Shown: positions 15,263-43,270, counted from the stretch's first letter. The stretch: 64,000 nucleotides of DNA from Chloroflexota bacterium (GCA_030603665.1 JAUVXJ010000013.1:23910-87909), one strand, 5' to 3'. Numbers and translations: made by a program. The notes: generated by a model not told the origin, from the letters alone.

Positions 15263-15263
15263 A
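14364..15263 (+). CDS. comM: YifB/ComM-family AAA+ ATPase, truncated form, second copy
   Basis: The protein is identical to copy 1 apart from the first 6 residues and one S/G change. Nearly all nucleotide differences are synonymous. Confidence 0.8.
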   Translation: MRWSIVHNVLMTGPPGAGKTLMARSLPSILPSMTIEEALDVTKIYSVSGLLPPETPLIRHRPFRAPHHTISHAGLVGGGQWPRPGEISLAHHGVLFLDEVPEFGTRVLEVMRQPMEDKVVTISRAQGTLTFPAKFTLIGAMNPCPCGYFGDPSRECTCALSMVSRYQKRLSGPLLDRIDIHIDVPRVDYEKLTDDRLGEPSEAIRKRVEKARRAQRQRFEGTPMTCNADMGPAEVREYCQVDDAGGSLLRAAMEQLQMSARAFHRVLKLGRTIADLAGSETIETAHLAEAIQYRPRTHM

Positions 15264-15508
15264 GTCTGTCGGCTTGTTGCGACGCTCTGGATGCGCGATG
15301 AGGAGCATCGCCAACTCGCGCAGACAGGAGTGTTACTACTGGTGCGTTCGATGGGCCTAGCCCAGGGGGTTCTGCCCGAGAGGGTGGCAATCTCAGTTCC
15401 GCAATCTCATTGGGAGGGGCGGCGTCAACCCAGAAACGGCAGATTTCTGGACCTCTGCGCAGTATCGCGGAGACAGATGAGGAGGTTGGATCACCAAGGA
15501 GGAGAGAG

Positions 15509-26502: not shown

Positions 26503-26702
26503 TTTGCCCATGGGGTCCAGCTGAAACATCGGCCAGTCACTCCCCTACGACCCAGACTGTGGCCAGGCGATGGGGCTGGGTTGCTGCCTGATTCTCCGCA
26601 CCTCACTTCACCACATGCCGGGCTCAGGCTAGCCGTTCGCCGGAGAGCCGGTGTACAATGGCTGCACCGCGCAGGACCCCTGATGCGAGGAGGAGATCAG
26701 CA

Positions 26703-28190
26703 ATGACAGTGGCGGACCACACGTCTATGGAAGAGACCCTTGATCCCCAGGACTGGGAGTCCATGCGCGCGCTCGGCCATCGCATGCTGGACGACATGAT
26801 GACCTATCTCGAAACGGTAGAAGAGCGCCCCGTATGGCAACCTATCCCCGACGAGGTCAAGGCGCGCCTCCGCACGTCTCTGCCGCTCGAGCCAGGTGAT
26901 CCGCAAGAGATCTACGAGGAGTTCCTGAAACTGGTGCTACCCTACCCCATGGGCAACATACATCCCAGGTTCTGGGGCTGGGCGTTGGGCACCGGCACAC
27001 CCTTCGGCATGCTGGCGGAGATGCTGTCGTCGGGCCTGAACTCCGTCCCTGGCGGCGGAGAGCAGGTGCCCAACGATGTCGAGTTGCAGGTGCTCGATTG
27101 GTGCAAGGAGATGCTTGGCTTTCCCTTGGAGGCCAGCGGGCTGCTGGTCAGCGGCTGCTCCATGGCCAACTTGGTGGGACTGACCGTGGCGCGCAACGCC
27201 ATGGCCGGATTCAACCTCCGCCAGGAAGGCCTACAGGCTTCACGCCATAGAATGACCTTCTACTGCTCCACTGAGACTCATAGTTCGGTCCAGAAGGCCA
27301 TAGAGTTGCTGGGGCTCGGCGCCGAATACCTGCGCCAGGTACCTGTGAACGAGGAGTTTCAGATCGACCTCGCGGCACTACAGCAGGCAATCGCCGAGGA
27401 CCGGGATGCTGGTCACAAGCCAACCTGTATCGTGGGCAACGCGGGTACGATCAACACCGGCGCCTTCGATGATCTCGATTCCCTGGCGGACATCTGTGAG
27501 CGCGAGGGGATGTGGTTCCACGTTGACGGCGCCTTTGGCGCGTGGGCCGCCCTCGCCCCTCAGCTGCGGCCGATGGTGGCGGGTATGGAGCGTGCTCAGT
27601 CCCTCGCCTGCGACCTGCACAAATGGATGTACATGCCCTATGAGATAGCGTGCGTCCTGGTGCGTAGCGCGGAAGACCACCGTCGGTCCTTTTCGCTGAG
27701 CCCGGACTATCTTGAGCACCACACCCGGGGACTGGCCGGCGGAAAGGTCTGGTTCACCGACTATGGCATTCAGCTCTCGAGGAGCTTTCGGGCCCTGAAG
27801 GCCTGGATGTCCCTCAAAGAGCACGGCATCGAGAAGTACGGGCGCTTGATACAGCAGAACGTGGACCAGGCGCGCTACCTGGCAAACCTCGTGGAGTCCT
27901 CGCCAAAACTGGAGATGCTGGCACCCGTCCCTCTCAACACGGTCTGTTTCCGCTTCCATGCCGATCAGCTCGATGAGCCAACTATGAACCGGCTCAATGA
28001 GGAGTTGATGATTCGCCTTCAAGAAGAGGGGAAGGTGCTCATCTCGTACACGACCTTGAATGGCACGTACGCCCTCCGCGCGGGGATCACCAATCACCGC
28101 AGCCGCAAAGAGGATTTCGATCTCCTCATCCAAGAGGTGGCGAGGGTCGGAGGGGAGCTGCTCGACGAGGGCTTCGTCGGCGCTGAGTAG
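26703..28190 (+). CDS. PLP-dependent group II decarboxylase (aromatic-L-amino-acid / glutamate / diaminobutyrate decarboxylase family)
   Basis: It has the PLP-Lys motif DLHKWMYMPYEIACVLVR and the family-typical N-terminal helix (ETVEERPVWQPIP). Confidence 0.75.
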   Translation: MTVADHTSMEETLDPQDWESMRALGHRMLDDMMTYLETVEERPVWQPIPDEVKARLRTSLPLEPGDPQEIYEEFLKLVLPYPMGNIHPRFWGWALGTGTPFGMLAEMLSSGLNSVPGGGEQVPNDVELQVLDWCKEMLGFPLEASGLLVSGCSMANLVGLTVARNAMAGFNLRQEGLQASRHRMTFYCSTETHSSVQKAIELLGLGAEYLRQVPVNEEFQIDLAALQQAIAEDRDAGHKPTCIVGNAGTINTGAFDDLDSLADICEREGMWFHVDGAFGAWAALAPQLRPMVAGMERAQSLACDLHKWMYMPYEIACVLVRSAEDHRRSFSLSPDYLEHHTRGLAGGKVWFTDYGIQLSRSFRALKAWMSLKEHGIEKYGRLIQQNVDQARYLANLVESSPKLEMLAPVPLNTVCFRFHADQLDEPTMNRLNEELMIRLQEEGKVLISYTTLNGTYALRAGITNHRSRKEDFDLLIQEVARVGGELLDEGFVGAE

Positions 28191-29904: not shown

Positions 29905-30465
29905 ATGCGTATCGAGAAAGCATCATTCCTGGGAGGCGCCGACTTCCAATCAGGCGATCAGACCTACAAGGACGTTTTCGAGACCGCCAGACTCCTGGCT
30001 CAGAGCAGCATCACGGTGTTGAACGGTGGCGGCCCCGGTGTGATGCGAGCTGCAACCGAGGGAGCTCATGAAGGCGGCGGCCGCGCCGTGGGAGTCACCT
30101 ACTACCCCAAGTACGAACACGCCACGTACGAAGGCAGGGATTTCCTCAACCATTTCGATGAAGAGGTGGTAACGGCAGACTATTTCGAGCGTACCCAGAC
30201 TCTCTTGGAGATGGGAGATGTCCACATAGTGTTCAGGGGCGGGACGGGCACCATCAGTGAATTCGGCATGAGCTGGGCCCTGTCCAGGATTCACCTGGGC
30301 CACAGCGTCCCCCTGCTCCTCTTCGGAGGGTTCTGGGAGGAGATCACCAACTGCCTCAAGGAGTACATGTACATGCGGGAGGACGAGTTCCGCATCTACC
30401 ATGTCGTCACTTCCCCACAAGAGGTCCTCGATACGATACGGAAGCTGGAGCAAGCCACAACCTGA
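29905..30465 (+). CDS. LOG-family (TIGR00730, Rossmann-fold nucleotide-binding) protein
   Basis: It has the motifs LNGGGPGVMRAATEGA and FRGGTGTISEF (GGGxGxM / PGGxGTxxE) and is 186 aa. Confidence 0.7.
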   Translation: MRIEKASFLGGADFQSGDQTYKDVFETARLLAQSSITVLNGGGPGVMRAATEGAHEGGGRAVGVTYYPKYEHATYEGRDFLNHFDEEVVTADYFERTQTLLEMGDVHIVFRGGTGTISEFGMSWALSRIHLGHSVPLLLFGGFWEEITNCLKEYMYMREDEFRIYHVVTSPQEVLDTIRKLEQATT

Positions 30466-30493
30466 CAGCGCATCTAGAGAGGGAGAGTAGTCC

Positions 30494-31351
30494 ATGACCA
30501 GCGAGAAGATCACGGTCGTGAAGCGCTCCGGGGAATACGAGCCCTTCTCCGAAAGAAAGGTTCGAACCTCCCTCATGAGGGCCGGAGCAGATGATGGGCT
30601 CATCGACGCCATCGTCCGCCGGGTCGAGAGAGAGCTCTACGATGGCATCTCCACCAGGGAGATCTATGCCCACGTCTTCGCACTGCTCAGAGAACTCCAG
30701 AGCCCCCTGGTGTCCAAGTATGACTTGAAGAGATCGATCATGGAGCTTGGTCCCTCGGGCTTTCCCTTCGAGAAGTTCGTGGCCGGTGTCCTCCAGGCCC
30801 AGGGGTTCACCGTGGCGGTGGGGCAGATAGTCCAGGGTAAGTGCGTCGACCATGAGGTGGATATGATCGCCCAGAAGGGTCACAGGCATTACATGATCGA
30901 GGCCAAGTTTCACAACCAGCCCGGCCTTAAATCGGACATCAAAGATGCACTGTACACCTATGCCAGGTTTCTGGACGTCGAGCAAATCTGGGTGGAGATC
31001 GCCGGCCACCGGGCTCACCTGCACCGGGCCTGGCTCATCACCAACACCAAGGTCACGTCGAAAGTGAGGGAATACGCCAAGTGCGCAGGCATGCGGGTGA
31101 CGAGCTGGAACTACCCCTCCAGAGCCAGTCTGAGGTTGATGGTAGAAGAGAGCGGCCTGCTCCCTGTGACCTCTCTCCAGTCCCTTGGCCCAGAGGACAA
31201 GGCGAGGCTCCTCGGGGAAGGTATCATCTTCTGTCGCGAGCTGCCGGAACGGGACATCCCCTTCCTGAGCCGCCACAAGCTCGAGAAAGCACGCAAGGAG
31301 GCCCTGGAGGCGTGCAGAGGGAAGGTCTCTCCATCCCAGGTAGAGTCATGA
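30494..31351 (+). CDS. ATP-cone domain fused to a Mrr-cat-like PD-(D/E)xK restriction-endonuclease domain
   Basis: The N-terminus ITVVKRSGEYEPFSERKVRTSLMRAG matches the ATP-cone start. The nuclease core is FEKFVAGVLQAQGFTVAV...VDHEVDMIAQK...YMIEAKFH...LITNTKVTSKVREYAKCAGM. Confidence 0.65.
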   Translation: MTSEKITVVKRSGEYEPFSERKVRTSLMRAGADDGLIDAIVRRVERELYDGISTREIYAHVFALLRELQSPLVSKYDLKRSIMELGPSGFPFEKFVAGVLQAQGFTVAVGQIVQGKCVDHEVDMIAQKGHRHYMIEAKFHNQPGLKSDIKDALYTYARFLDVEQIWVEIAGHRAHLHRAWLITNTKVTSKVREYAKCAGMRVTSWNYPSRASLRLMVEESGLLPVTSLQSLGPEDKARLLGEGIIFCRELPERDIPFLSRHKLEKARKEALEACRGKVSPSQVES

Positions 31352-31448
31352 ATGCCCGGACCGAGGTGGCAGGATTCACATCAAGCTTCGTAGGCGCGAC
31401 GCCACACACCTGCCGTGGAATGCCTCGCCCATCACAGCGCTGATCCAC

Positions 31449-32639
31449 CTACACTCCCTTCAGCGCCTCTGCCGAGAATGACCGCTCCAGCTCCTCGTCG
31501 ACGAACACTCCATCTTCTCGAATGAGCTCGCCGTCGAAGTAGATCTCCCCGCCACCGTACTCCTTCCGCTGGATCTGCACCAGGTCCCAGTGTATGGCAG
31601 ACCGATTCCCGTTGGACGCATCGTCGTAGCAGTTACCGGCGGCCAGATGCAAGGAGCCGGCTATCTTCTCCGTGAACAGGACGTCCCTGCTGGGATGCAG
31701 GATGAAGGGATTGAGACCGAGAGCGAATTCCCCGATGTAGCGCGCACCTTCGTCGGTGTCCAGAATCTGATTCAACCGCTCGTTGTCGCCTTGACACGTG
31801 GCGTCAACGATCTTGCCATCGCGCAGCTCGAACCTAACATCGTGGAACACCGACCCCTTGAATAACCCCGGGGTGTTGAAGGTGATCGTCCCGTTGACAG
31901 AATCCTTCACGGGGGCTGTCAACAGCTCGCCATCCGGGATGTTGCTCTTGCCGTCCCATTTCATGGAGGGGATACCCTTGATGGAAAAGGTGAGGTCGGT
32001 GCCTGGCGCAACGAGGTGTACGATATCTGTCCTCTCCATCAGCTCTGCCAGAGGGTCCATGGCCTTCGACATCCTGGCATAGTCCAGGCAGCAGACGTCG
32101 TAGTAGAGGTCCTCATAGGACTCCTGACTCATCTCCGACAGCTGAGCAATGGAGTTGGAAGGGTAATGGAGTATGCACCATTTGGTTCTCCTGACACGGA
32201 TCTCTTGGTGGACCGGTTTCACGTAAAGCGTTTGGTTCATCCGTAACTGCTGAGCTGAGACATCGGCCAGGTCGAAGGGATTGTCGTCGGCGATCACCAC
32301 GAGCCAGGCATCACTCTGCTCCACGAGCCTCAGATGCCAGTCTGTGCGAGCCCTGAACTGCTCCTCCGTGGCGAACGGAATCCACTGGCGCTGAAACGAT
32401 GCGTCGTTGAAGTACCAGAAGGGCACGGCGCCCCTCTGCGTAGCCTGCCTGACCAGGACCTTGGTCAGTTCCAGAGCCTCTCTCCCGGAGACCTCGATGA
32501 ACAAGCGCTCGCCAGGCTGCAATTCGATGGAGTACCCCAGAAGCTGTCTCGCCAGGACTTCGTTTCGCTCGTCTCTCACGATCGTCCCTTTCTCCCTCCT
32601 GCCACGAAGGCTGCCCGCACCCACGGTGGAGGCGCCCAC
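31449..32639 (-). CDS. M29-family aminopeptidase (AmpS/PepS-like)
   Basis: EGARYIGEFALGLNP and the overall length fit the M29 family. The exact start is uncertain, and the N-terminal MGASTVGAG... may be upstream extension. Confidence 0.55.
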   Translation of the reverse strand: MGASTVGAGSLRGRREKGTIVRDERNEVLARQLLGYSIELQPGERLFIEVSGREALELTKVLVRQATQRGAVPFWYFNDASFQRQWIPFATEEQFRARTDWHLRLVEQSDAWLVVIADDNPFDLADVSAQQLRMNQTLYVKPVHQEIRVRRTKWCILHYPSNSIAQLSEMSQESYEDLYYDVCCLDYARMSKAMDPLAELMERTDIVHLVAPGTDLTFSIKGIPSMKWDGKSNIPDGELLTAPVKDSVNGTITFNTPGLFKGSVFHDVRFELRDGKIVDATCQGDNERLNQILDTDEGARYIGEFALGLNPFILHPSRDVLFTEKIAGSLHLAAGNCYDDASNGNRSAIHWDLVQIQRKEYGGGEIYFDGELIREDGVFVDEELERSFSAEALKGV

Positions 32640-32653
32640 CTTCGCATCCGCCC

Positions 32654-33289
32654 CTACCCAGCTCCAACAAGCTCGCTCGCTTTCCTCACCGCCGCGGATG
32701 CATCTGGAGCGTAGCCGTTGGCACCTATCTCGTCGCAGTACTCCTGGGACAAGGGCGCGCCGCCCACCAGCACCTTCACCCCATCGAGCAGACCGGCCTT
32801 GGCCAGCGCCTTCATGGTCCTCTCCATAGCGGGCATGGTGGTAGTCATCAGCGCCGACATGCCCACGATATCCGTCTTGGCCTGTTGCAGCGCTGCTACG
32901 AACTTCTCAGGAGCCACGTCTGCTCCCAGGTCAACGATCTCAAAGCCCGCTCCTTCGAGCATCGTACAGACCAGGTTCTTCCCCAAGTCGTGCATGTCGC
33001 CCTGCACGGTCCCCATGGCCACACGACCGACTGCGGTCGATTGTTCACCCACCATCAAGGGCCTCAACACACCGAGTCCAGCCTGCATCGCACGAGACGC
33101 GATGAGCATCTCAGGCACGAAGAACTCGGCTCTCTCGAACCGAGCACCCACCTCCGCCATAGCCGGAACGAGACTCTCGGCGATGACCTGCTGAGGTGTT
33201 GCACCTTCTGCCACAGCCTGCTTCACCAGTGTCTCAACAGAAGTCCCGTCGCCTCGCAACACCGCGTCGTATATCTCTCTCACGTCCAT
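32654..33289 (-). CDS. Corrinoid (B12)-binding protein of a methyltransferase system
   Basis: The B12-binding motif is GTVQGDMHDLGKN (DxHxxG). A Rossmann-like C-terminal domain and an N-terminal helical cap are present. The start is taken at MDVREIYDAV. Confidence 0.7.
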   Translation of the reverse strand: MDVREIYDAVLRGDGTSVETLVKQAVAEGATPQQVIAESLVPAMAEVGARFERAEFFVPEMLIASRAMQAGLGVLRPLMVGEQSTAVGRVAMGTVQGDMHDLGKNLVCTMLEGAGFEIVDLGADVAPEKFVAALQQAKTDIVGMSALMTTTMPAMERTMKALAKAGLLDGVKVLVGGAPLSQEYCDEIGANGYAPDASAAVRKASELVGAG

Positions 33290-33402
33290 CGATGATCCTC
33301 CGGCCTCCTGCACCGCCTGCGTTCTCCGGCCCAACTGCCGCTGACTTATGACCTATTGGGAATACTGCACTCCCGATCCGCGCCCGTCTCCAAGCCCTCC
33401 GA

Positions 33403-34548
33403 TTACCCTCCGATAGGATACTGGCCGTATTCGTGTGCGGCTTCGAACAGAGCCACGATATTATCCGGGGGTACATCGGGCTGTATGTTGTGTATAGTAC
33501 CAAAAACGAATCCTCCCCCCGGCGCCAAGTCGTTGATACGCCTCCTTGCCTCCTCCTTCACATCACGCGGCGTTCCAAAGGGCAGCACCCGTATTGGATC
33601 GGCGCCTCCACCCCAGAAGACGATGTCCCGTCCAAACTCCCGCTTCAGTCTGTCCGTCTCCATGTCCCTGGCTGAGACCTGCACCGGGTTGATGATGTCT
33701 ACTCCGCTCTCGATTATGTCGGATAGGGCCCAGTAGATAGATCCACAGCAGTGCAGGAAGATCTTGGCATCGGTCTTCTGGTGAATGAGATCCGTGAGGC
33801 GACGATGCCGCAGCTTGTACACCTCCCGGTACAGGTCGGGGGAGAAAAGAGGCCCGTGTTGGCCACCCAGGTCGTCGCTCAACTCGACCACGTGAACGGA
33901 TGGTCCCACCTCGTCCAGCACCAGGCTCCAGAACTCCAGCAGCCACTCCAGCACCCTCTCGGCCAGGGCCTCCACGTACGCCCTGTTATCCGCCATGTCC
34001 ATGAACAACGCTTCAAGTCCGCGCAGCCAGTACGACTGTTCGAAGACACCGCCGATGGGCGCGTGAATCATTACCGCCTTGTCGGTCTCCTCCAGCAGGC
34101 GCTTGGCCTCATCCGCCAGGCCCTTCACTCGACTGGGGTCGCCCGCGTCGGGAAACTGGAAGTTCTTCAACTCCTCGATGGTCCCCTCCTGGAGAGGATG
34201 ACCTGCCAGATCATACCAGTATCCCCCTGGAGGTCGCCGGTAGACCACGCCCCACTCGTCCACGAAGCTGTCGGTCTCCGGGTCAAGCTTGAACTCGAAA
34301 TCGGCTGCATCGTGAGGAAAGAAGCCCACGACATCCGCATGGAACATATCCTTCACTGCAGGTGCCGGGTCCACTATCTGCTGGAAGGTGTCCATGATGG
34401 GGATGTCGTCCGTCGGGAGTCCCAGATACAGGAGAAGGTTGCGATAAGCCTCGTGGTGCAGCGAGGTGACCAGCCCCCCGAAGTCGATGGGCACCCGATC
34501 AGGCTCTTGGTGGTCCAGAGCAAGAAGAACTCTCTCCCGACTGTTCAT
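33403..34548 (-). CDS. Uroporphyrinogen-decarboxylase-family methyltransferase (MtaA/MtbA/CmuA-like, methylcorrinoid:acceptor)
   Basis: It has a URO-D-like TIM-barrel signature (PIDFGG near the N-terminus; FLHCCGS). It is adjacent to a corrinoid protein. Confidence 0.6.
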   Translation of the reverse strand: MNSRERVLLALDHQEPDRVPIDFGGLVTSLHHEAYRNLLLYLGLPTDDIPIMDTFQQIVDPAPAVKDMFHADVVGFFPHDAADFEFKLDPETDSFVDEWGVVYRRPPGGYWYDLAGHPLQEGTIEELKNFQFPDAGDPSRVKGLADEAKRLLEETDKAVMIHAPIGGVFEQSYWLRGLEALFMDMADNRAYVEALAERVLEWLLEFWSLVLDEVGPSVHVVELSDDLGGQHGPLFSPDLYREVYKLRHRRLTDLIHQKTDAKIFLHCCGSIYWALSDIIESGVDIINPVQVSARDMETDRLKREFGRDIVFWGGGADPIRVLPFGTPRDVKEEARRRINDLAPGGGFVFGTIHNIQPDVPPDNIVALFEAAHEYGQYPIGG

Positions 34549-34647
34549 TCAAACCTCCAGACCATGAGCGCCCCTTGGAGAAAGGTCGCGTGCAGCATTC
34601 GCGTATCTGCCGAGTACGATTGCCCGTAGGCCCATTCCCACGCATGA

Positions 34648-35289
34648 TCACGGTTCCAGCACCGGGAGATCGTCACAGGGGCCGTTCATGTTCAGGGTCG
34701 CGGCAGGGACCCATCCTGTTATGTCCATCCCTGTGCTACCTAGACTCAGGTCGACCTGAGCCCAGTCGCCGCTCATGCCCAAGACTGCAGCATAGTCGCC
34801 GTGCAACAGTGTCGCCACCACTTCAGACGACCGGTCAGGCTCGGCGTGAACCTGGACCTCGTCCATGGGCATGGTGAAGCAGACCCCGGCAGGAGGCCCG
34901 ATCAGCTCCGGAACTCCCCCACACTGACCCTCCAGACGAACAGCGCCGTTTCCCTCGACCCAGCGTAGCCTGAAGACTCCCACGTTGGCCGCCTGTGCGA
35001 CACCGGGCTCAAGACCCCACCAGCCATCCAGCGTTCTGCCCTCCACCCTCGCGCGGGAGCCTGGCTGCATCACGCCGAAGACGGCGGCGCTGGGATCTGG
35101 CCTGTTGTAGACAATGACCTCACCCTCGGCAACTAGTTCACAGAGCTCAGCGGGTCCGGCGCCCCGCCCGCCGAGATCTCCGTTCGATTGACCTCTCAGG
35201 GCGCAGCCACCACAGAACAGTATGACCAGCAAGGCTCCAGACAATGCCGCCCTTCCCACGCGTCGCTCTACCCCCTCGCCAGCACTCAC
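34648..35289 (-). CDS. Secreted hypothetical protein with SH3b-like repeats
   Basis: It has a signal/TM segment, ALSGALLVILFCGGCA. Two similar beta-rich modules with W...G motifs follow. Confidence 0.45.
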   Translation of the reverse strand: MSAGEGVERRVGRAALSGALLVILFCGGCALRGQSNGDLGGRGAGPAELCELVAEGEVIVYNRPDPSAAVFGVMQPGSRARVEGRTLDGWWGLEPGVAQAANVGVFRLRWVEGNGAVRLEGQCGGVPELIGPPAGVCFTMPMDEVQVHAEPDRSSEVVATLLHGDYAAVLGMSGDWAQVDLSLGSTGMDITGWVPAATLNMNGPCDDLPVLEP

Positions 35290-35975
35290 CAGTACCGCCG
35301 GGGATGCCGATTTGCCACCGCCTCGAGAAGGATGCGCACGTAGTTCGGATCCCCCCGCACCTCCCGGGAGAACCCGGTATCCGAAAGCTCCTCCGTCCCG
35401 TGGGTCCGTACCAGCTCCCTGGCCCTATCCACCATGGGTTCAACCATCGAAGCCAGAGACTCTGCGCTCTCAGCTGAAGGCTGGAGTTGCCGTGCCCGGT
35501 CGTAGAAGTCCTCGATCAGTTCTGAGTACTCCGATCCCTCCTGGAACTGCTCCGGGGGGAGGTGATACCCGGCCGCCACCAGCTTCTCCCACACTCTGAA
35601 GACTTGCCCCGCCATCTCTGGACTTCGAAGCCACCCTGCCCCATACAGCTCGGTCAGAGTGGCGTTGACATCCTCTATCCTCCTGTCCACGTGGGACACG
35701 TCGCTGCCAGGCGGCTTATCTCCTGAGGCCTGCGGGATAAGCGTCGTCAGGTACTCCTGCATCTTCTCCGTCAGGCCAGTACTTGTCTGGGTCTTCACAC
35801 CGTCCTCTATGTCCAGCAGCAAGGAGGCCAGGCTCCTGAGGCTGCCCCTGGGGACCCCCGCCGCCTCCCCGAGATCGCGGGCCTGCTTGGCCATCGACAG
35901 CATCTTCCTGGAGAAGTTCAGGACGTCTCCAAAGCTCAGACTCTCCTGCTCCCAGCTACGCTTTCTAGCGCACAT
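35286..35975 (-). CDS. Hypothetical protein
   Basis: It is a 229-aa ORF with coding-like composition and a 4-bp overlap with the downstream gene. I recognise no motif. Confidence 0.35.
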   Translation of the reverse strand: MCARKRSWEQESLSFGDVLNFSRKMLSMAKQARDLGEAAGVPRGSLRSLASLLLDIEDGVKTQTSTGLTEKMQEYLTTLIPQASGDKPPGSDVSHVDRRIEDVNATLTELYGAGWLRSPEMAGQVFRVWEKLVAAGYHLPPEQFQEGSEYSELIEDFYDRARQLQPSAESAESLASMVEPMVDRARELVRTHGTEELSDTGFSREVRGDPNYVRILLEAVANRHPRRYW

Positions 35976-36266
35976 CTATCCGGCCCTCCTTCAAGCTACC
36001 AAGCACTTCCGCCACCGACGGCTACCGAGAGGATTCTATCAGGGCATGTTAGCACCGGCAAGCGTTGCTCCAAGACGCTGTTCCAGGATATTCCAGCTCA
36101 CCTTTCAGCGGCGCTGCTCAAGCACGCAGCGCCATCGGATCCCTTCCTCGACCAAGATTCTAGCCGGCCGGTGCACGCGGCTTGCGTAGTCGGGGCGTCT
36201 GCAAAGCGGGGCGGGGTCAGGGCGATGCCCGGACTAGCGGCCTACTACTAGGGCATCCAGAAAGGC

Positions 36267-37514
36267 CTACTCCGCCTCCTTTTCCCAGGGGTGCGGTGTC
36301 GGTTGGTCATGCCGCGGCGAGGGACGCCTGCGCCCAATGATCAAGAAAGCCACCGTGCCCACCGCGGCCAGGCCCAGGGTCAGGTACCAGACTCCCACGG
36401 GGGCCACGTTGTCATATACGTATCCGCTGGCGATGGGGCCGATTCCCCAGGCGATGCTGCCCACTATGCCATATACCGCCATGTATCTGCCGCGCATGTC
36501 GATAGGCGCCATCCTGGCCACGAAGGACACGGAGGTGGGAGCCCAGATCAGCTCTCCGACGGTAAGAACGATCATGGCGAGAAGGAACCACCATATGTTG
36601 TATGAAAGGGCCACGGCAAACGCAGCCATCCCTGTCCACAAGGCACCGGCGGCCATCACGTAGGCCTCCGCGTACTTCTCCGTCCTCCTGGTCACTGCAA
36701 ACTGGAAGAAGACCACCATCAGAGCATTGACGGTCATGATCAGGCCAAAACCGCTCTCCGGGATGGCAAACCCCTCCTTCATGTACACTGGGAGAAGCTG
36801 CATGAACGGCTCGTACGCCATCCACAGCAGGATGGAGGCCAGACAGAAGGCTACGAAGTAGTAGTCGCGCAGGATGTACCCATAACCGCCTCCCGGCCGC
36901 TCCACCTTCTCCACCTCAGAAAGCTCTGGCTTGGTCTCCCTGACCAGGAAGACAACCAACAGCAGCGCGATGCTGGCGGCAACTGCCGCAGCGCTGAAGG
37001 TCAAAAAATAGGAAGCAGCGGCCAGAAAGCCGCCCACGGCGGGACCTATGGCGATGCCAGCGTTCGACACCATCCTCAAGAGGGCGTATGCCCCAGCGCG
37101 CTTCTCCTCATCTATCAGATCGGCGATCATGGCGTCCGATCCTATGCGGGAAGCAGGTTCGATGAGTCCGCTCATGGCGATCAGAACAGCATACGCCTGC
37201 AGCGAACCCAGCAGTGCGAAGCCCATCATGATCACGACCTCGTTCGCCAGCCCGGCGACCATGGCCGTCTTCCGCCCGTACTTGTCCACGACGGGGCCCC
37301 ACAACACCTGAGAGAACAGGCCCACCCCCGCATTGAGGGCGAAGAGAACCCCTATTGTAGTCAGAGGGATCTCCAGCCTCTGCCGGAGGTACACCGTGAG
37401 AAAAGGCCATACCAGGCTACCCCCGGTGGCCCCGATGAACCTGGCCACGAACAGGATCCAGAACTGGAGAGGGTATTCGGCTATGGTGTTTCTGATCCTT
37501 GAAATCATCCCCAC
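36267..37514 (-). CDS. MFS transporter (candidate substrate permease of the MtmB-like system)
   Basis: It has 12 predicted TM helices and the MFS motif GPVVDKYGRK. It lies directly downstream of the mtmB-like gene. Confidence 0.7.
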   Translation of the reverse strand: MGMISRIRNTIAEYPLQFWILFVARFIGATGGSLVWPFLTVYLRQRLEIPLTTIGVLFALNAGVGLFSQVLWGPVVDKYGRKTAMVAGLANEVVIMMGFALLGSLQAYAVLIAMSGLIEPASRIGSDAMIADLIDEEKRAGAYALLRMVSNAGIAIGPAVGGFLAAASYFLTFSAAAVAASIALLLVVFLVRETKPELSEVEKVERPGGGYGYILRDYYFVAFCLASILLWMAYEPFMQLLPVYMKEGFAIPESGFGLIMTVNALMVVFFQFAVTRRTEKYAEAYVMAAGALWTGMAAFAVALSYNIWWFLLAMIVLTVGELIWAPTSVSFVARMAPIDMRGRYMAVYGIVGSIAWGIGPIASGYVYDNVAPVGVWYLTLGLAAVGTVAFLIIGRRRPSPRHDQPTPHPWEKEAE

Positions 37515-37761
37515 AACCTATGAGGTCGGAGCCGCATCACTGGAACGTAGCTCCACCTCAGGCACGGACTTTGGACAATGAGTGCTATTGTACCACAATG
37601 ATCTGACAATGCCCCTTCAGGATTGCTCCAACGTCGCCGAGGCTGATGCGCGAGGTGCAGACACACAGAGAGATCATACGCGACAAAGGGGGTGCAGCGT
37701 TCAGACCTGCGGTCGCCGGGCACCTTGGTGGGACAGGGAGCTCGCTACGCGTGCTCCGTGG

Positions 37762-39147
37762 TCAATAGGGGAACTGGAGGCCCAGAGTTGCTAGCTGTTC
37801 CTTGACTCGCCGGTAGAGGCCGAGATAATCCTCACTCGGCAGAGATGTCCGCACATCGTAGCACTCCCGGAACTCACTGCCCAGAGGTGCATCGGCGATC
37901 TGCTCTTCGTACCTGTCCAGGATCTTCGAGACGAGATCGTTGGCCTCCTTGCGACTGAGCCGCATATTGGCGACGGCGTGTCCCGTTTCAGCAGCCATGC
38001 GCGCCTCCATGGGGGTGGCCCGATTCTTGTGTTTGTTGCGCGCTGGCGCCGCCTCCCAGAGATTAGCGCCGGACACAGTGCTGGTCAGCGCGTGAGCTGC
38101 CGCTTCGTAGAGCACCATCTCCGTTGCCGGGCCTGCGTTGAGGAAGCCATTGGACACAGAGATGATCTTGCTGTTTCTGGCAACGGCCTGATGGCTGGCG
38201 CTGGCCACCCACAGCAGTTCCCTGCTCGTTCCGGACGTGTAGTGGATGTGGAAGGGGAAGTTCATCTGGTAGTGCGCCTGATGGACCAGCAGACCCATGA
38301 GATGATAGGCCACCTGAAGCACGGCCGTCCCCTCAGCCCGGCCCGCGTATCCACCAAAGATCGGTCCTGTCAGGCTCCCGGTGAAACAGCCGAACTGCTG
38401 ATAGTGAGCAGCCTTATTGAGCAGCGCGTTGTCGATCTTCAGCTCGGTCAGTCCTCCAACGAGGCGGCTGTCCGAAGTCCGCACCCCCCAATCGGAACTG
38501 CTGATCGATATCTGCCCCACGTCCGACTCGGCGGTCCCCGCGGCGACCAGGAAGATGCCCGGGCGCCCCACCAGCTTGGCCGCCTCACGCAGACTCATAG
38601 CATGTTCCATGCTCCCCGCCAGTTCGGTGGGCGTCTTGGCCTTGATCTTCAGACCCATGCTCTCCTCGAGAATGGGAGCGCAAAACCCGTCGGCCAGGGG
38701 TTCTCTCAAGTACGCCACGCACATGGGCAGGAACAGCTCCTCGTCGCAGGAGATGTCAGGACTGAAGATCACGAAGGGAGGGTCCTCGTCCTCCACGTCA
38801 CGGCATCTCAACAGGCAGGAATCCTTGCCCAAACCGACCGTGTACTGTCCGGGAATCAAGTATAGCGCTTCCCGCACCTCACTCTCATCGAAGGTGAGAA
38901 TGCGGTGGGTATCCACGCAGAGAACGCCCACCTCCAGGAAGAACTCCACCCCGGCTTGCCACACGGCGTCGGCCAACGCATCATCGCTGGGGATAGGAGT
39001 GGCAGGATCGTACTCTATGCCGTACTTCTTGATCACCTCCTGCATCTTGGGCATGAAGCGGTCCATGGTGAACGCCTCGTCCTCACAGAAGGGGCCCGTG
39101 CGAGCTCGCTCCAGGATCTCCCACATCTTATACGGTGGCGCTGGCAT
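37762..39147 (-). CDS. MtmB-superfamily (monomethylamine methyltransferase-like) protein lacking pyrrolysine
   Basis: It is 461 aa, the same size as MtmB. A GRPG motif lies near residue 210 where MtmB carries Pyl, with no in-frame TAG here. The C-terminal FRECYDVRT...LGLQF resembles the MtmB C-terminus as I recall it. The gene order corrinoid protein - this gene - permease mirrors mtmCBP. Confidence 0.5.
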   Translation of the reverse strand: MPAPPYKMWEILERARTGPFCEDEAFTMDRFMPKMQEVIKKYGIEYDPATPIPSDDALADAVWQAGVEFFLEVGVLCVDTHRILTFDESEVREALYLIPGQYTVGLGKDSCLLRCRDVEDEDPPFVIFSPDISCDEELFLPMCVAYLREPLADGFCAPILEESMGLKIKAKTPTELAGSMEHAMSLREAAKLVGRPGIFLVAAGTAESDVGQISISSSDWGVRTSDSRLVGGLTELKIDNALLNKAAHYQQFGCFTGSLTGPIFGGYAGRAEGTAVLQVAYHLMGLLVHQAHYQMNFPFHIHYTSGTSRELLWVASASHQAVARNSKIISVSNGFLNAGPATEMVLYEAAAHALTSTVSGANLWEAAPARNKHKNRATPMEARMAAETGHAVANMRLSRKEANDLVSKILDRYEEQIADAPLGSEFRECYDVRTSLPSEDYLGLYRRVKEQLATLGLQFPY

Positions 39148-39793
39148 CCCCTCTCCTCAACTCCATCACCTTGCCCAAGACTGCCACGGCTTGCATGGCA
39201 TTCTCCGCCCACGAATCGGCGCCGATCTCCTCCGCCCAGGCATCCGTCACGGGCGTGCCTCCTACCATGACGATGAAGCGCTCGCGCAGCCCCATGTCCT
39301 TCAACAACTCGACTATCTCCTGCTGGCCGGGCATCGTCGTGGTCATCAATGCCGAGGCGCCGATGACGTCAGCGTCAACCTCCTGTGCCTTCTTGATGAA
39401 ATCGAGGGCGTTGACGTCGGGCCCCATATCGTGAACAGTGTAGCCGTTCACCTCGAGAAGCAGAGCCACGATGCTCTTGCCGATCTCATGGATGTCTCCT
39501 TCCACCGTGCCGATGACCACTGTGCCTTTCGGGGGCCGCTTCTCCTTCAGTAGCTCCAGGTGGGGAGCTACTGGCTCCAGGGCCTTCTGCATGGCCTGGG
39601 CCGCCAGCATCATCTCCGGCAGGAAGACCTCCATGCGCTCGAAACGGTCCCCCACCTCCCGGATGGCATCGGTCAAGGCATCCACCACTGCCAGAGGATC
39701 CATCTTGTCCGCCATAGCCTGTTGGGCCAGGGCCAGGGCATCCTCGTCTTCACCGTCTTCCACAGCCTGCACCAGACTCTCCAGCAAATCCAT
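39128..39793 (-). CDS. Corrinoid (B12)-binding protein, translationally coupled to the MtmB-like gene (20-bp overlap)
   Basis: The B12-binding motif is GTVEGDIHEIGKS (DxHxxG) and it is 221 aa. Its stop at 39128 lies inside the start region of the next gene. Confidence 0.7.
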   Translation of the reverse strand: MDLLESLVQAVEDGEDEDALALAQQAMADKMDPLAVVDALTDAIREVGDRFERMEVFLPEMMLAAQAMQKALEPVAPHLELLKEKRPPKGTVVIGTVEGDIHEIGKSIVALLLEVNGYTVHDMGPDVNALDFIKKAQEVDADVIGASALMTTTMPGQQEIVELLKDMGLRERFIVMVGGTPVTDAWAEEIGADSWAENAMQAVAVLGKVMELRRGDASATV

Positions 39794-39987
39794 CGAACCA
39801 CGCCTCCTCGCTCGTATTGCTGGTCACATTATAGGCGAATGGGAGCCCGCCAGCAATGGTCGCAGAGCCAGCGCGATCTCCCCTGGGGGCAGCGCCGCGC
39901 AATCCCCCCAGAGGATGTCGCCCTTGTAAGGGCATGGCCGGGATGGTATGATCCCTGCGAGAAAACCGCAGGGCAGGGAAGGCAGCA

Positions 39988-40863
39988 ATGGGATTCTTGG
40001 ACAGGCTCGCTACCGGTGAGACGCTCCTGGCCGACGGCGCCATGGGTACCATGCTACAGGCCGCTGGGCTGGAGAAGGGACATGCCCCCGAGGAGATGAA
40101 CCTCACTCAGCCCGACAAAGTCCTGGCCGTTCACAAGGGATACGTCGATGCTGGCTCCGAGCTCATCCTCACCAACACCTTCGGCGCCAACCGCTTCAGG
40201 CTGGAGAAGTACGGTCTGGCGGACAGAATCTATGAGCTCAGCCGTCGCGCTTCGGAAATCGCCCGAAAGGCAGGTGCCTCCTTCGTCGCTGGCTCCATTG
40301 GCCCCACTGGGGAGTTCCTCGCCCCTCTGGGCACTCTCAGTCCGGAGGACGCCAGAGACACCTTCGGTGAGCAGGCAAGAGGGTTGGCCGCCGGCGGTGC
40401 GGACCTTTTGGTCATCGAGACCATGTCCGATCTCCAAGAGGTGGAAGCGGCGGTCCAGGCCGCGCGCGAGAACACCAATCTGCCCCTCCTCTGCACCATG
40501 ACCTTTCAGCAGAAGCTGCACACGGTGATGGGGGTCACCCCCAAGGAGGCCGCAGAGAGGCTCAGCGGCTGGGGCGTAGCCGCCATGGGAGCCAATTGCG
40601 GCACAGGTCCCCAGGAGGTAGAGCAGGTGTTGGCACAGATGAAGGAGGCCGTCCCCGACGCCGCGCTGGTGGCCAAGCCTAACGCGGGGGTCCCGCGCCT
40701 GGTTGAAGGGCGCACGGAGTACGACGCGACGCCCGAACTCATGGCCGACCACGCCCTTCGCTTCGCGCAAGCGGGAGTGACCATCATCGGCGCCTGCTGC
40801 GGTTCCACACCCGAGCACATCTCAGCCATGGCGCAGGCGCTGGGCAAGTCCGCAAGCGCATGA
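39988..40863 (+). CDS. Homocysteine S-methyltransferase domain protein (MetH N-domain / BHMT-like)
   Basis: The motifs are LADGAMGTML, TNTF and the zinc motif GACCGSTPEHI. Confidence 0.75.
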   Translation: MGFLDRLATGETLLADGAMGTMLQAAGLEKGHAPEEMNLTQPDKVLAVHKGYVDAGSELILTNTFGANRFRLEKYGLADRIYELSRRASEIARKAGASFVAGSIGPTGEFLAPLGTLSPEDARDTFGEQARGLAAGGADLLVIETMSDLQEVEAAVQAARENTNLPLLCTMTFQQKLHTVMGVTPKEAAERLSGWGVAAMGANCGTGPQEVEQVLAQMKEAVPDAALVAKPNAGVPRLVEGRTEYDATPELMADHALRFAQAGVTIIGACCGSTPEHISAMAQALGKSASA

Positions 40864-40927
40864 GGGATGCCATCCCGCTGACCGGCGGGGTTTCAGCCTG
40901 CCCGTCCTCGGCGCTTCCGGCACATCA

Positions 40928-41809
40928 CTACACGTCTGCGCTGAATGGGAGTTGTGAGACGACACCAGCTTGCACGATGACGCTCCCGTTGATGTCCCCG
41001 AAGCGGCCAAGACCAAGACTGGCGGTGTAGGTGTACTCACCAGGTGGCAACTCGATGCGGCGATTGGAGTTGGCCTCCACCGTGTACATCTGACCCGAGA
41101 TGGTGAAGGTCATGCTGGTGCCGCAGTAGTTCTGCACCTCCACCCACCCCACCGCTGGCCCGGGCTCCGCTGTCGGGCTGAAGGTAGCGGTCGGCTCTGG
41201 TCGGGATGTGGGTGTACTGGTAGGCGCTGGAGCAACGGTCTGAGTTGGCGCTGGCGGCTGAGTCGCAGTCTGCGTCGGCGCCTGAGTCGCGGTCGGCGTT
41301 GGTGCCTCTCGGACCTCGCAGCTGTCCTGAAGCACCACCCGATCACCAACCTTGACAACTAGCTCGTAGATGCCGGGCTCAAGGGGCTTCCCCTCCTTGC
41401 CGAAGATCCACTGCCACTGATTGCCCGACTCGTACTCCAAGGTTCCGTACTCTCCGTAGAAATGAGAGCCATCGTGGTAGAAGTCCCACCGGAAGCGCTC
41501 TCCCCCTTCCACATCTTCGTACGGCCAGTAAGCGTACAGTCTGGCAATGCCGTGGTCGAAGGCCATCCCCACATCCACTGGCTCTTGCTCTTGGTCGTCG
41601 AAATCGCTGCTGAAGGTCACTGGCCCGAAGGACGGCGTGCGCACAGGGCTGGGCGTGACGACGGTCGTAGGCTCGGGGTCCGCCGGCAGCGTCGCCCTGG
41701 CCGGTTCCACCGTCGGGGACGCCGCCCCTCCATCACAGGCCATCAGCCCGAGCAACATCGAGGCGGTCAAGATCAGCAACAGCGTTCTGCCCCCGCTCCA
41801 CATCAGCAA
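40928..41809 (-). CDS. Lipoprotein with a PT-rich linker, function unknown
   Basis: A lipobox-like LGLMAC follows the signal peptide. It is flanked by two beta-rich domains. Confidence 0.5.
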   Translation of the reverse strand: MLMWSGGRTLLLILTASMLLGLMACDGGAASPTVEPARATLPADPEPTTVVTPSPVRTPSFGPVTFSSDFDDQEQEPVDVGMAFDHGIARLYAYWPYEDVEGGERFRWDFYHDGSHFYGEYGTLEYESGNQWQWIFGKEGKPLEPGIYELVVKVGDRVVLQDSCEVREAPTPTATQAPTQTATQPPAPTQTVAPAPTSTPTSRPEPTATFSPTAEPGPAVGWVEVQNYCGTSMTFTISGQMYTVEANSNRRIELPPGEYTYTASLGLGRFGDINGSVIVQAGVVSQLPFSADV

Positions 41810-42074
41810 GTCTCCTTCCTATGCCCGGCACTCAACGCGTGCGCCGGTGAAGTCACCGTACGCCCATGCATGCGCAATTCTCTCACGTCTAGCTGGATTT
41901 GTCAAGCCTCGCCCGATGGTTCGCGGACTAGCCGGCCCGTGACTCCCTGTGCCTGACCATTGGGTCACACAGCAGTCCACCACGCCATGACCCGCAGTCC
42001 AAGTTGCATACTCTTGGCCGAACGGCGTAGAATAGCTATAGTGAGACCACTCCACCCGTGAGATCCCTGGCTGG

Positions 42075-42851
42075 GTGCAGCAGATGGACATTCAATGGAC
42101 GCCGGTCATCATCGGCTTCGCAACAGGCGCCCTCAGCGGCGCTCTGGTCACGTACTTCCGGCACTGGCTCGCCCAGCGTAGAGAAGCGGAGAGTCGCGAG
42201 TTCGCCAAGGGACAGGAGCGGGAGCGCATCAGGCGCGAGCACTACGCCCGCACACTGGCTTACGCCAACACCAAAGAGAGCCTGCGGGGCTGTGACCTGG
42301 CTGAGCAGGACCTGGCCGGAGTATACCTCGCCAAAGCAGACCTCCAACGCGCGACTCTCAGCGCCGCAGACCTCTCCAACTCGAACCTGGAGGAGGCCAA
42401 CCTCATCGGCGCAGACCTCAGGGGGGCAAACCTGACAGGAGCCAACCTGACGAAGACGGCGCTGGAAGGGGCCAACCTGGAGGGCGCAACCATTCGGTCC
42501 GCGGTACTCACGTACACCAACTTGGCCGGGGCCAGCCTACGACGAACCGATCTGCGCGATGCGGTGCTCGAAGATACAAACCTGGAATGGGCCGATCTCC
42601 GAGAGGCCCAGCTCCAGGGGGCGGAGCTCAAGAAAGCTAACATGAAGGCCGCGAGTCTGGAAAGGGCCAACCTCGAAGGGGCCAACCTCAAAGGGGCCCG
42701 CCTGGTAGAGGCCAGACTGGAGGGCGCGAACCTCCTGGGCGCCGACCTCAAGAAGGCGGAACTGGCAGGTGCCCATCTCAAAGGCGCGAAGCTGGATTCC
42801 ACCTCCATCATGCCTAAGGACTGGGAGACCGCCGTAGCCAGCAAGCCATGA
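42075..42851 (+). CDS. Pentapeptide-repeat protein with an N-terminal TM anchor
   Basis: The pentapeptide repeat A(N/D)L.GA.L runs for about 35 consecutive repeats. Confidence 0.8.
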   Translation: MQQMDIQWTPVIIGFATGALSGALVTYFRHWLAQRREAESREFAKGQERERIRREHYARTLAYANTKESLRGCDLAEQDLAGVYLAKADLQRATLSAADLSNSNLEEANLIGADLRGANLTGANLTKTALEGANLEGATIRSAVLTYTNLAGASLRRTDLRDAVLEDTNLEWADLREAQLQGAELKKANMKAASLERANLEGANLKGARLVEARLEGANLLGADLKKAELAGAHLKGAKLDSTSIMPKDWETAVASKP

Positions 42852-43270
42852 GGGGAGAACTGCCTTGACTCCAGGACCCTGCTGCGAGCGCTCAGCGCTC
42901 CTCCTGGCATCATTCGCACGCTGCTCCAAAGGGTCGCGGACTGGCCCATCCAAGCTGCATACCCGTACCAGGACGCTCAGCCGGCTTTGCCTACCTATAT
43001 CGCCAGTGCCACACCTGCTGCATTTGCAGCGTAGCTTTGATTGTGCTATATTGAACTAGGATGTCGGTAGGGTCCATGGCCCTGCCATCCAGCGTAGTCG
43101 GAAGAAAACGTCGAGCACATCGCCGCCAGCGCACGGGCAGTCGGTTCCGGGACCAGGCGAGAGGAAGACTAATCAAGCCGTGGCGAGCACCCTCCCGCCC
43201 CGCCCGTGCCCGTGCATTGATGAGGGAGTATGTACTCCGCAGGCAAGAGACGGAAAGGAGAACGAGAACA

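Follow-up and report, generated by a model that had tools for sequence, protein, structure and literature searches.

A B12-dependent methyl-transfer gene set around a pyrrolysine-free MtmB relative in an Anaerolineae-type bacterium

There are numerous homologs of the methyltransferase MtmB that lack pyrrolysine (Pyl), and a single one of these has a demonstrated function (PMC13044021). This is MtqB of Methanococcoides methylutens Q3c (locus ACT9XH_RS04775), which together with MtqC serves as a tetramethylammonium/choline:corrinoid methyltransferase (PMC13044021, 2026). The original prediction for the DNA described here held that the substrates of such homologs are essentially uncharacterised, a statement that MtqB has made dated. 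Non-Pyl MtmB enzymes as such are already known, and what is new here is the substrate predicted for one member. Other described systems are MtgB-MtgC-MtgD-MtgE of Ruegeria pomeroyi and the three-part split methionine synthase of Phaeobacter inhibens (PMC12478193, 2025). MtgE of Ruegeria is constitutive and dispensable for betaine demethylation, and across marine bacteria its gene mostly stands unlinked (PMC12478193).

The window analysed here is a stretch of 64,000 nucleotides from an Anaerolineae-type bacterium, and it carries a B12-dependent methyl-transfer gene set around a Pyl-free MtmB relative. All eight genes of the interval 32654-40863 are present at the coordinates given for them. Two of them very likely form a cognate pair, a corrinoid protein (corB) and a Pyl-free MtmB-family methyltransferase (MT1). 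With a probability of about 0.5, MT1 and corB are a methylhistidine:corrinoid methyltransferase pair whose methyl group probably goes to homocysteine in this lineage.

The MT1 and corB pair

MT1 (37762-39147, minus strand) is an uninterrupted ORF of 461 aa that encodes a predicted substrate:corrinoid methyltransferase. Its proposed membership of the MtmB superfamily is confirmed by PF05369 (MtmB; Pfam), which is matched over profile positions 3-450 of 450 (E=8.3e-103, 345 bits, cutoff 25). No PF06253 (MttB) gene was found in the 64-kb window. MtmB1 of Methanosarcina barkeri (PDB 1l2q) is matched over the full length at 31% identity (E=4.4e-74). An AF2 model of MT1 (pLDDT 70.8, pTM 0.78) has 1nth as its best match in the PDB (E=6e-32, TM 0.83), and the next family is MttB, with a TM of ~0.4 to MttB/MtgB structures. 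As judged from the profile and the model, MT1 is a genuine MtmB-family enzyme without Pyl and has the TIM-barrel fold of MtmB. In the alignment, Pyl202 of M. barkeri MtmB1 falls on Val201 of MT1, and [LFM]-V-A is invariant at this position across the MT1 clade. The in-frame UAG codon is absent at the Pyl202 position of the MT1 ORF, which bears out the predicted lack of an amber codon. Neither pyl genes nor a tRNA-Pyl were found within the 64-kb window.

The corrinoid protein gene, corB (39128-39793, minus strand), encodes 221 aa with PF02310 and PF02607. Its DxHxxG motif reads GDIHEIGK. Among NCBIfam models, MtbC and MtgC come closest, and the PDB entry for MttC, 7xcn, is matched with E=8e-48. 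The predicted overlap of 20 bp between this B12-binding gene and the start of MT1 is exact and lies at 39128-39147. The corB stop codon, TAA, occupies 39130-39128, and the MT1 ATG at 39147 is preceded by GAGGAGAGGGG, which provides a strong ribosome-binding site. In GTDB, essentially all of the 80 loci whose DNA extends upstream of MT1 have a corB-like gene directly before it. Because of the overlap, the ribosome-binding site, and this adjacency, the corB-MT1 pair is probably translationally coupled. Upstream of corB, a divergent intergenic region of 194 bp (39794-39987) separates it from the homocysteine methyltransferase gene and is presumed to be a promoter region. A promoter-like site, by consensus match only, lies at 39924-39952 on the plus strand, and a search of these 194 bp for a riboswitch found none.

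Other genes of the interval

The homocysteine methyltransferase gene (HcyMT; 39988-40863, plus strand) encodes a stand-alone MetH-type homocysteine-binding module of 291 aa that is MtgE-like. It matches PF02574 (E=2.7e-77, 261 bits) and scores 304.7 bits against NCBIfam PRK07534 ('Bhmt'/MtgE-type), just under the cutoff of 338. The homocysteine domain of Thermotoga maritima MetH (PDB 1q7m) is matched with E=7.8e-60, far above BHMT (81 bits) and HMT. The zinc cysteines lie in GANCGTG and GACCGSTPEH, and the triad C204, C270, and C271 is invariant. The family had been named correctly as homocysteine S-methyltransferase, but the zinc motif quoted for it, GGCCGTTPEHI, is GACCGSTPEHI in the sequence.

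MT1 is followed after 247 bp by a gene for an MFS_1 permease of 415 aa (36267-37514, minus strand; PF07690, E=5.7e-51), which is a candidate substrate importer. NCBIfam gave only weak matches, to efflux-type models, and the gene is syntenic only in relatives that are at least 80% identical. MtmP belongs to a transporter family other than MFS_1. The proposed likeness to mtmC-mtmB-mtmP is one of gene order, and the permease is a generic MFS_1 protein. The next gene in the same lineage encodes a 229-aa protein (35286-35975, minus strand) that has no Pfam or NCBIfam match and is syntenic in close relatives. A Met_synt_B12-like family is encoded at other loci, and the 229-aa protein proved unrelated to it (hhalign probability 0.1%). 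An SH3_3 protein is encoded at 34648-35289. The original prediction mentioned neither of these last two genes, both of which lie inside the interval.

A divergent URO-D-family methyltransferase of 381 aa, described as MtaA/MtbA-like, is encoded at 33403-34548 on the minus strand. PF01208 supports the family (E=5.8e-23, 82 bits). The likeness to MtaA is weak, with 54 bits against TIGR01463 (cutoff 235) and E=1.5e-4 against MtaA (PDB 4ay7); the MtbA model gives 31 bits (cutoff 600). The protein has an H-C-C-G motif; at the position of the third zinc ligand, where a relative has Cys, it has His. The second corrinoid protein that had been predicted is present 68 bp downstream. This is corA (32654-33334, minus strand), which encodes 226 aa with PF02310, PF02607, and a DxHxxG motif that reads GDMHDLGK. 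It is 40% identical to corB and is absent or degraded in some close relatives. The URO-D/corA pair may supply either another MT2 or a further donor system.

The scan of the 64-kb window, which covered ORFs of 180 aa and longer, found no reductive activator (RamA, RACo, or DUF1638) and no pterin-binding, methyl-THF module of the MtgD type; such a module may lie elsewhere in the genome. RACo is found beside related HcyMT and MT1 genes at other loci.

Histidine-related neighbors and the substrate of MT1

Orthologs of MT1 that are 54-95% identical are spread over about 10 phyla (GTDB). The non-Pyl homologs of MtmB form 1048 representative clusters at E<=1e-3. Clustering at 50% identity places the whole MT1 clade under a single representative (53% identity, 576 bits), and the next one lies at 42% and 382 bits. 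Synteny of the MFS, HcyMT, URO-D, and corA genes is confined to close Anaerolineae relatives. The eight-gene island is not conserved as a unit, and beyond these relatives only the corrinoid-MtmB pair persists. The commonest neighbors of the orthogroup are non-Pyl MttB genes, which are present at 23 of 64 distant loci. ABC transporters for amino acids and dipeptides also recur near the pair, as do an Fdh-like Mo-oxidoreductase and sulfonate-type binding proteins.

Genes for histidine utilisation (hutH, hutU, hutI, and ftcD) were found beside the pair at 11 of 80 loci and at none of 80 control loci (Fisher p=3e-4). These four genes were called above NCBIfam equivalog cutoffs, and urocanase was also confirmed by Pfam. 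The locus whose MT1 is 89% identical to the window protein (L003) has ftcD-hutU-hutI-hutH-HcyMT divergent from CP-MT1-MFS, CP being the corrinoid protein gene. A complete hut operon here lies between the CP and HcyMT genes, and HcyMT ends that operon facing CP-MT1. Other arrangements are CP-MT1-hutU-hutH (L021) and CP-MT1-hutH-hutI-ftcD-hutU (L045). Beyond these 11 loci, HutP or HisC-like genes adjoin the pair, as in HutP-CP-MT1-...-HisC of Formimonas and in the IclR-HisC-CP-MT1-(MttB)-IorAB-ACS order of the Spirochaete loci. The hut, HisC, and HutP genes recur at MT1 loci across 6-7 phyla. Counting against such a link, about 60 of the 80 MT1 loci, although many of them are short contigs, have no histidine-related genes, and no hut genes were found within the 64-kb window.

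The MT1 orthogroup is repeatedly embedded in histidine-catabolic operons, and a methylated histidine is therefore its most likely substrate, although the chance that the substrate is of this type is put slightly below even. The histidine-utilisation link and the prediction of a methylhistidine substrate are both new here. The original prediction spoke of a methylated or quaternary amine, which is broader, and did not mention this link. MT1 would demethylate an N-methylated substrate, possibly brought in by the MFS permease, and pass the methyl group to Co(I) of corB. If the substrate is a methylated histidine, the product would be L-histidine. Candidate isomers are the N-alpha-methyl series from hercynine and the ring-methylated N-pi- and N-tau-methylhistidine. 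The recurrent Fdh-like Mo-oxidoreductase and sulfonate-type binding proteins are not accounted for by this reading.

It is improbable that MT1 is instead an MtqB-like methyltransferase for a quaternary amine (choline, tetramethylammonium, or another betaine), with the nearby histidine genes coincidental or merely co-regulated. MtqB is the only characterised precedent, corB resembles MtbC/MtgC-type corrinoid proteins most closely, as MtqC does, and the non-Pyl MttB genes that so often adjoin the pair belong to quaternary-amine enzymes. However, identity between the MT1 clade and all other MtmB subfamilies falls to at most 42%, and the GTDB hits with at least 54% identity include none from Methanococcoides. 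Moreover, choline, ethanolamine, and TMA genes are not recurrent in the neighborhoods, in contrast to hut, HisC, and HutP. The substrate could also be another N-methylated amino acid, such as N-methyl-Trp, -Phe, or -Tyr or one of their betaines, or specificity could be broad, with histidine as one product among several. Operons for an indolepyruvate:ferredoxin oxidoreductase, an ADP-forming acyl-CoA synthetase, and an aminotransferase surround the pair at about 10 loci. Genes of these three kinds are compatible with any aromatic amino acid. One locus (L026) has an aminotransferase of aromatic type, and the recurring amino-acid and dipeptide transporters would suit such a substrate as well. However, the aminotransferases of these operons exceed the hisC equivalog cutoff, and the dedicated hut enzymes and HutP are specific to histidine. 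With identities of at least 54%, the orthogroup is tight enough to favor a single substrate, and this second alternative is also judged unlikely. That MT1 is a true monomethylamine methyltransferase which works without Pyl is hardly credible. In its favor, the family carries the name 'monomethylamine:corrinoid methyltransferase' in source annotations, and MtqB has trace monomethylamine activity (PMC13044021). Against this, Val stands in place of Pyl, the residue credited with activating methylamine (as cited from Hao 2002). The window also lacks the Pyl machinery, and the neighborhoods suggest amino-acid substrates. The substrate of MT1 is almost certainly not monomethylamine.

The methyl acceptor and comparison with known systems

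The methyl relay via cob(I)amide to homocysteine that had been proposed for this locus is plausible, given the MetH-type HcyMT, the presence of its relatives in CP/RACo/MttB clusters, and the precedent of MtgBCDE (PMC12478193). In the Anaerolineae lineage, CH3-Co(III) of corB would be demethylated by homocysteine through the adjacent MtgE-like module, giving methionine. Homocysteine as the acceptor in this lineage is a tentative assignment that falls a little short of an even chance. It is quite possible that HcyMT is instead the housekeeping homocysteine module of a split methionine synthase, with the corB methyl group transferred elsewhere, either by a pterin-binding MT2 from outside the window to tetrahydrofolate or by the URO-D protein to a thiol. 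A 71%-identical HcyMT homolog is a neighbor of mutS and has no MT1 in its vicinity, HcyMT was not present at any distant MT1 locus in the GTDB neighborhoods, and URO-D genes directly follow MT1 at about 6 distant loci. In Ruegeria, where MtgE is constitutive, betaine catabolism proceeds via MtgD/THF (PMC12478193). The adjacency of HcyMT could be incidental because it is seen in one lineage only, because the 71% homolog has an unrelated context, and because MtgE is constitutive and dispensable in Ruegeria. On the other side, the divergent HcyMT-corB arrangement is retained in more than 10 Anaerolineae genomes, and in L003 HcyMT closes the hut operon opposite CP-MT1. Relatives of HcyMT with 41-56% identity sit in URO-D-RACo-HcyMT, RACo-CP-HcyMT, and CP-HcyMT-MttB clusters, and the URO-D gene of the window, 3 kb off, comes with a separate corrinoid partner and decays in relatives.

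On a wider proposal, the orthogroup would be the first corrinoid-dependent demethylase of methylhistidine. At loci where it is accompanied by non-Pyl MttB genes and an MtmB paralog that is ~41% identical, these enzymes together would convert hercynine, or another methylated histidine, to L-histidine in three Pyl-free steps that mirror the TMA, DMA, MMA series. In this bacterium, the methyl group would pass directly to homocysteine via the MetH-type module, making methionine without methyl-tetrahydrofolate. This full scheme is doubtful. The MT1 clade is very well conserved and widespread, and its histidine neighborhood offers a concrete substrate hypothesis that can be tested cheaply. If methylhistidine is the substrate, there would be an anaerobic-style turnover route for methylhistidine or hercynine, and the link between a corrinoid demethylase and a split methionine synthase would extend to a second MT1 family.

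Like MtqB, MT1 is a Pyl-free member of the MtmB family whose gene lies beside an MtbC-like corrinoid gene, and direct methylation of Co(I) from an N-methyl compound is presumed for both. MT1 appears to belong to a different subfamily, as judged from the clade gap and the lack of close Methanococcoides hits. It has a bacterial host and no clear MtbA/CoM branch, and the neighborhoods suggest histidine derivatives rather than choline or tetramethylammonium. The MtmB1/MtmC/MtmP system of M. barkeri (1NTH/1L2Q) shares with the window its fold, its family, and the order of corrinoid protein, MT1, and permease, whereas the window has no amber codon, Val201 for Pyl202, a generic MFS_1 permease, and no clear MtbA/CoM acceptor. 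The non-Pyl MttB enzymes (MtgB, MtcB, MtpB, and MtyB, with a shared corrinoid protein) are likewise Pyl-free relatives of methylamine methyltransferases that act on larger N-methyl compounds; these belong to PF06253 rather than PF05369, with the low structural similarity given above, and the window has no such gene. As in MtgBCDE and split MetH, the functions are divided among individual proteins, namely a substrate-specific MT1, a B12-binding protein, and a MetH-type homocysteine module, and one corrinoid protein may be able to serve both demethylation and methionine synthesis. Unlike MtgBCDE, the MT1 of the window is of the MtmB and not the MttB family, MtgD, RamA, and DUF1638 are not encoded in the window, and the homocysteine module adjoins the MT1/CP pair.

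Genes at 32654-40863 and the MtmB-like protein

On the minus strand of the window, between 32654 and 40863, are genes for a corrinoid protein (corA, 32654-33334), a URO-D-family protein (33403-34548), an SH3_3 protein (34648-35289), a 229-aa protein matching no family (35286-35975), an MFS_1 permease (36267-37514), the 461-aa MtmB-like methyltransferase MT1 (37762-39147), and a second corrinoid protein, corB (39128-39793). A homocysteine S-methyltransferase of 291 aa (HcyMT, 39988-40863) is encoded on the plus strand, divergent from corB. Apart from the SH3_3 and 229-aa proteins, which it did not mention, these genes and families are as the original prediction described them. Both corA and corB contain DxHxxG. 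The stop codon of corB, TAA (39130-39128), falls within the MT1 gene and GAGGAGAGGGG precedes the MT1 ATG at 39147; thus, the proposed 20-bp overlap of the two genes is well supported. The zinc motif of HcyMT had been slightly misquoted and reads GACCGSTPEHI. The 229-aa protein was ruled out as a relative of the MetH activation domain (hhalign probability 0.1%). No riboswitch (cobalamin, SAM, or THF) or other RNA element was found in 30000-43000, and terminator and promoter scans for operon boundaries gave weak consensus matches alone, mostly within genes. No tRNA, pyl gene, RamA/RACo, or pterin-binding methyltransferase was found within the window.

Membership of MT1 in the MtmB family was borne out by PF05369, which covers the protein across the whole profile (E=8.3e-103). 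Methanosarcina barkeri MtmB1 aligns with residues 7-459 (E=4e-74). An AlphaFold model (pLDDT 70.8), in which residues 160-178 and 295-334 are modelled poorly, matches 1NTH with a TM of 0.83 and MttB-family structures with only ~0.4. As predicted, no in-frame amber codon interrupts the reading frame. The alignment position of pyrrolysine (Pyl) 202 of MtmB1 is taken by Val201, which sits in the clade-invariant motif [L/F/M]-V-A-x-G-T-A-E.

The window also contains a direct repeat of ~1.0 kb (682-1690 and 14260-15270, ~95% identical, 13,578 bp apart). Both copies correspond to the 3' two-thirds of a gene for a ComM/YifB-like Mg-chelatase (ORFs 777-1685 and 14364-15263), and the identity ends just beyond the stop codon. 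Between the two are genes for a beta-propeller protein, a TPR+CHAT protein of 1121 aa, and TPR proteins, as well as small unassigned ORFs. This segment resembles an element that inserted into comM and carried in a replacement gene end. Ten repeat copies at 120-nt spacing (7697-9274) in the TPR/CHAT gene (6024-9389) are TPR_12 coding repeats.

Conservation of the corB-MT1 pair

The nearest homologs of MT1 (80-95% identity) are in Anaerolineae/Chloroflexota MAGs. The best 80 loci from a GTDB scan with one genome per species, 54-89% identical to the window protein, are found in Anaerolineae, Caldilineaceae, Clostridia (including 'Ca. Formimonas warabiya'), Bipolaricaulota, Arenicellales, Acetobacteraceae, Desulfobacterales, Thermoleophilia, Actinomycetes, Flavobacteriales, Spirochaetes, Aminicenantes, and Bathyarchaeia. 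In an exhaustive search over 1.8 billion cluster representatives, a single representative at 50% clustering (53% identity, 576 bits) stood for the entire clade, the one after it had 42% identity (382 bits), and the MtmB superfamily numbered 1048 representatives at E <= 1e-3. MT1 therefore belongs to a tight, widespread orthogroup of a diverse, mostly Pyl-free superfamily.

When the window proteins were compared with these loci by tblastn, a corB-like gene was found immediately upstream of MT1 in essentially all loci with upstream DNA. HcyMT, the MFS permease, the 229-aa and SH3 proteins, URO-D, and corA are shared only with relatives at 80% identity or more, where the URO-D/corA pair is partly degraded. 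The Pyl-free MtmB-fold enzyme and its DxHxxG corrinoid protein are thus a tightly coupled, universally conserved gene pair, and the rest of the supposed island is lineage-specific synteny around this two-gene core. The original interpretation is supported in part: the pair stands as proposed; the island is conserved in close relatives only. Two of these relatives suggest decay of the URO-D/corA module or assembly errors: gene calling gives a 157-aa fragment of URO-D in L002 (14657-16118), and the second corrinoid gene has shrunk to a 78-aa ORF in L001 (17405-18793).

The ORFs of 64 distant loci were clustered and cluster representatives annotated. Non-Pyl MttB-family genes are a recurrent partner (23 of the 64). 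ABC transporters of amino-acid and dipeptide type, indolepyruvate:ferredoxin oxidoreductase, ADP-forming acyl-CoA synthetase, class I/II aminotransferases, IclR and GntR regulators, URO-D proteins, and an Fdh-like molybdoenzyme also recur. The adjoining MttB genes all score under the TMA equivalog cutoff and have no specific model match, so known betaine specificities could not be assigned to them. The Fdh-alpha-like molybdopterin oxidoreductase (~714 aa; L034 11558-13702, also L036, L027, L029, L040, and others) is near the MtmB-like gene in ~11 distant loci, directly after it in L034 and L036, and scores 338 bits, well under the FdhA cutoff of 666. In eight loci (L025, L034, L036, L051, L052, L057, L058, and L069), a second MtmB-like paralog that shares 37-42% identity with the window protein lies a few kb from the pair. 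It usually has its own corrinoid gene and often one or two non-Pyl MttB genes, which could together form a multi-step demethylation set.

Across several phyla, the pair is adjoined by activators of the RACo type, which have an N-terminal 2Fe-2S domain (L029 6572-8440, L030, L041), or Met_synt_B12-like small proteins of ~243 aa (L075 12240-12971 and eight other loci); neither was found in the window. In an Actinomycetota locus (L084 6512-9303, the L047 site), gene calling divides the MttB region upstream of the pair into three ORFs (446, 183, and 280 aa), a split that may come from a frameshift or from a stop codon in frame, possibly one for Pyl.

Putative methyl donor and acceptor

The most informative neighbors are genes for histidine degradation, which adjoin the pair in several lineages. 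By NCBIfam equivalog cutoffs, neighboring proteins were identified as histidine ammonia-lyase (550-694 bits, cutoff 539), urocanate hydratase (645, cutoff 375), imidazolonepropionase (375, cutoff 298), and glutamate formimidoyltransferase (379, cutoff 221), and the operon-encoded aminotransferases of Spirochaetes and Formimonas as HisC (314-348, cutoff 277). With CP denoting the corrinoid protein, the arrangements include regulator-CP-MT1-hutU-hutH (L021, Anaerolineae), CP-MT1-hutH-hutI-ftcD-hutU (L045, Actinomycetes), MT1-hutH-hutI (L055, Bacillota), HutP-CP-MT1-GlcD/GlcF-like-NhaC-HisC (Formimonas), and IclR-HisC-CP-MT1-(MttB)-IorA-IorB-ACS (Spirochaetes). In L003, an Anaerolineae MAG locus whose MT1 is 89% identical to that of the window, ftcD-hutU-hutI-hutH-HcyMT is divergent from CP-MT1-MFS. 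This is the window arrangement, except that a complete hut operon is inserted into the divergent spacer, which is 194 bp long in the window. At least one of hutH, hutU, hutI, and ftcD is present in 11 of the best 80 MT1 loci (1.15 Mb) and in none of 80 control loci (0.71 Mb; Fisher p=3e-4). If one hut cluster is assumed per 4 Mb, chance alone would account for about 0.3 such loci. HutP or HisC-like genes occur in ~6 further MT1 loci.

No hut genes were found in the window. A group-II PLP-dependent amino-acid decarboxylase (510 aa, 26658-28190) is encoded 4.5 kb from the cluster. It is unsupported as a histidine decarboxylase (58 bits, cutoff 305), and its best models, diaminobutyrate and aspartate decarboxylase, are both far short of cutoff. 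As to a possible link to dichloromethane (DCM) metabolism, the Formimonas ortholog (P0091, 5.37 Mb) could not be matched to the DCM-induced Ga0180325_111810.

HcyMT scores 206 bits against the Hcy domain of T. maritima MetH (1q7m), 81 against BHMT, and 67 against SMM-type HMT. It scores 305 bits, nearly at the cutoff of 338, with the NCBIfam model from the S. meliloti-type 'Bhmt'. Mausz et al. (2025, PMC12478193) identified this type as MtgE, which serves a split methionine synthase as its homocysteine module. The best 120 homologs are all stand-alone proteins of ~291 aa, mostly from Anaerolineae. More distant relatives occur in an ABC-URO-D-RACo-HcyMT context, and metagenome contigs carry RACo-CP-HcyMT, CP-HcyMT, MttB-like-RACo-CP-HcyMT, and CP-HcyMT-MttB. 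These gene contexts support a probable corrinoid partnership. Counting against dedicated coupling to MT1, a 71%-identical HcyMT homolog adjoins mutS without MT1, and no HcyMT gene was found near MT1 at the distant loci.

The best explanation of the feature, to which we give a probability of roughly 0.5, is as follows. From knowledge of the family, MT1 would put a methyl group on Co(I) of corB, and the MT1/corB part is nearly certain. Comparative genomics points, tentatively, to methylated histidine as the methyl donor, with L-histidine as the product. L-histidine could then be broken down through Hut or HisC/IOR/ACS, where genes adjacent to the pair encode these. The MttB neighbors and the second CP-MT1 paralog (~41% identity, 8 loci) suggest a series running from hercynine through dimethyl-His to methyl-His. 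Ring-methylated histidine derived from anserine-like dipeptides would agree with the dipeptide-type binding proteins and with an M20 amidohydrolase (L021). By chemical reasoning, N-methylimidazolium in its protonated form would also be expected to act as a good leaving group in an enzyme that lacks Pyl. In the window lineage, the most economical acceptor step would be from CH3-Co(III)-corB to homocysteine, giving methionine by the adjacent MetH-type module; the odds of this step, like those of the methylated-histidine donor, are a little short of even. The MFS permease is a putative importer, and URO-D with corA may provide either a second donor system or an alternative MT2.

Comparison with known systems

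The first function for non-Pyl MtmB homologs was published in March 2026 for MtqB, which acts on tetramethylammonium and choline (PMC13044021). As far as indirect evidence goes, MT1 of the window is outside the MtqB clade. A search from the non-Pyl representative nearest MtmB1 reached Methanomassiliicoccales, not Methanococcoides. In the MtgE system, the corrinoid protein MtgC also serves MtgB, a non-Pyl MttB glycine-betaine methyltransferase (PMC12478193). No connection of hercynine or methylhistidine to corrinoid methyltransferases was found in the literature searched. The feature is a corrinoid methyltransferase system of three components in which a non-Pyl MtmB serves as MT1. New but unproven are a histidine-derived substrate for an MtmB-type MT1 and the pairing of such an enzyme with an MtgE-type homocysteine module.
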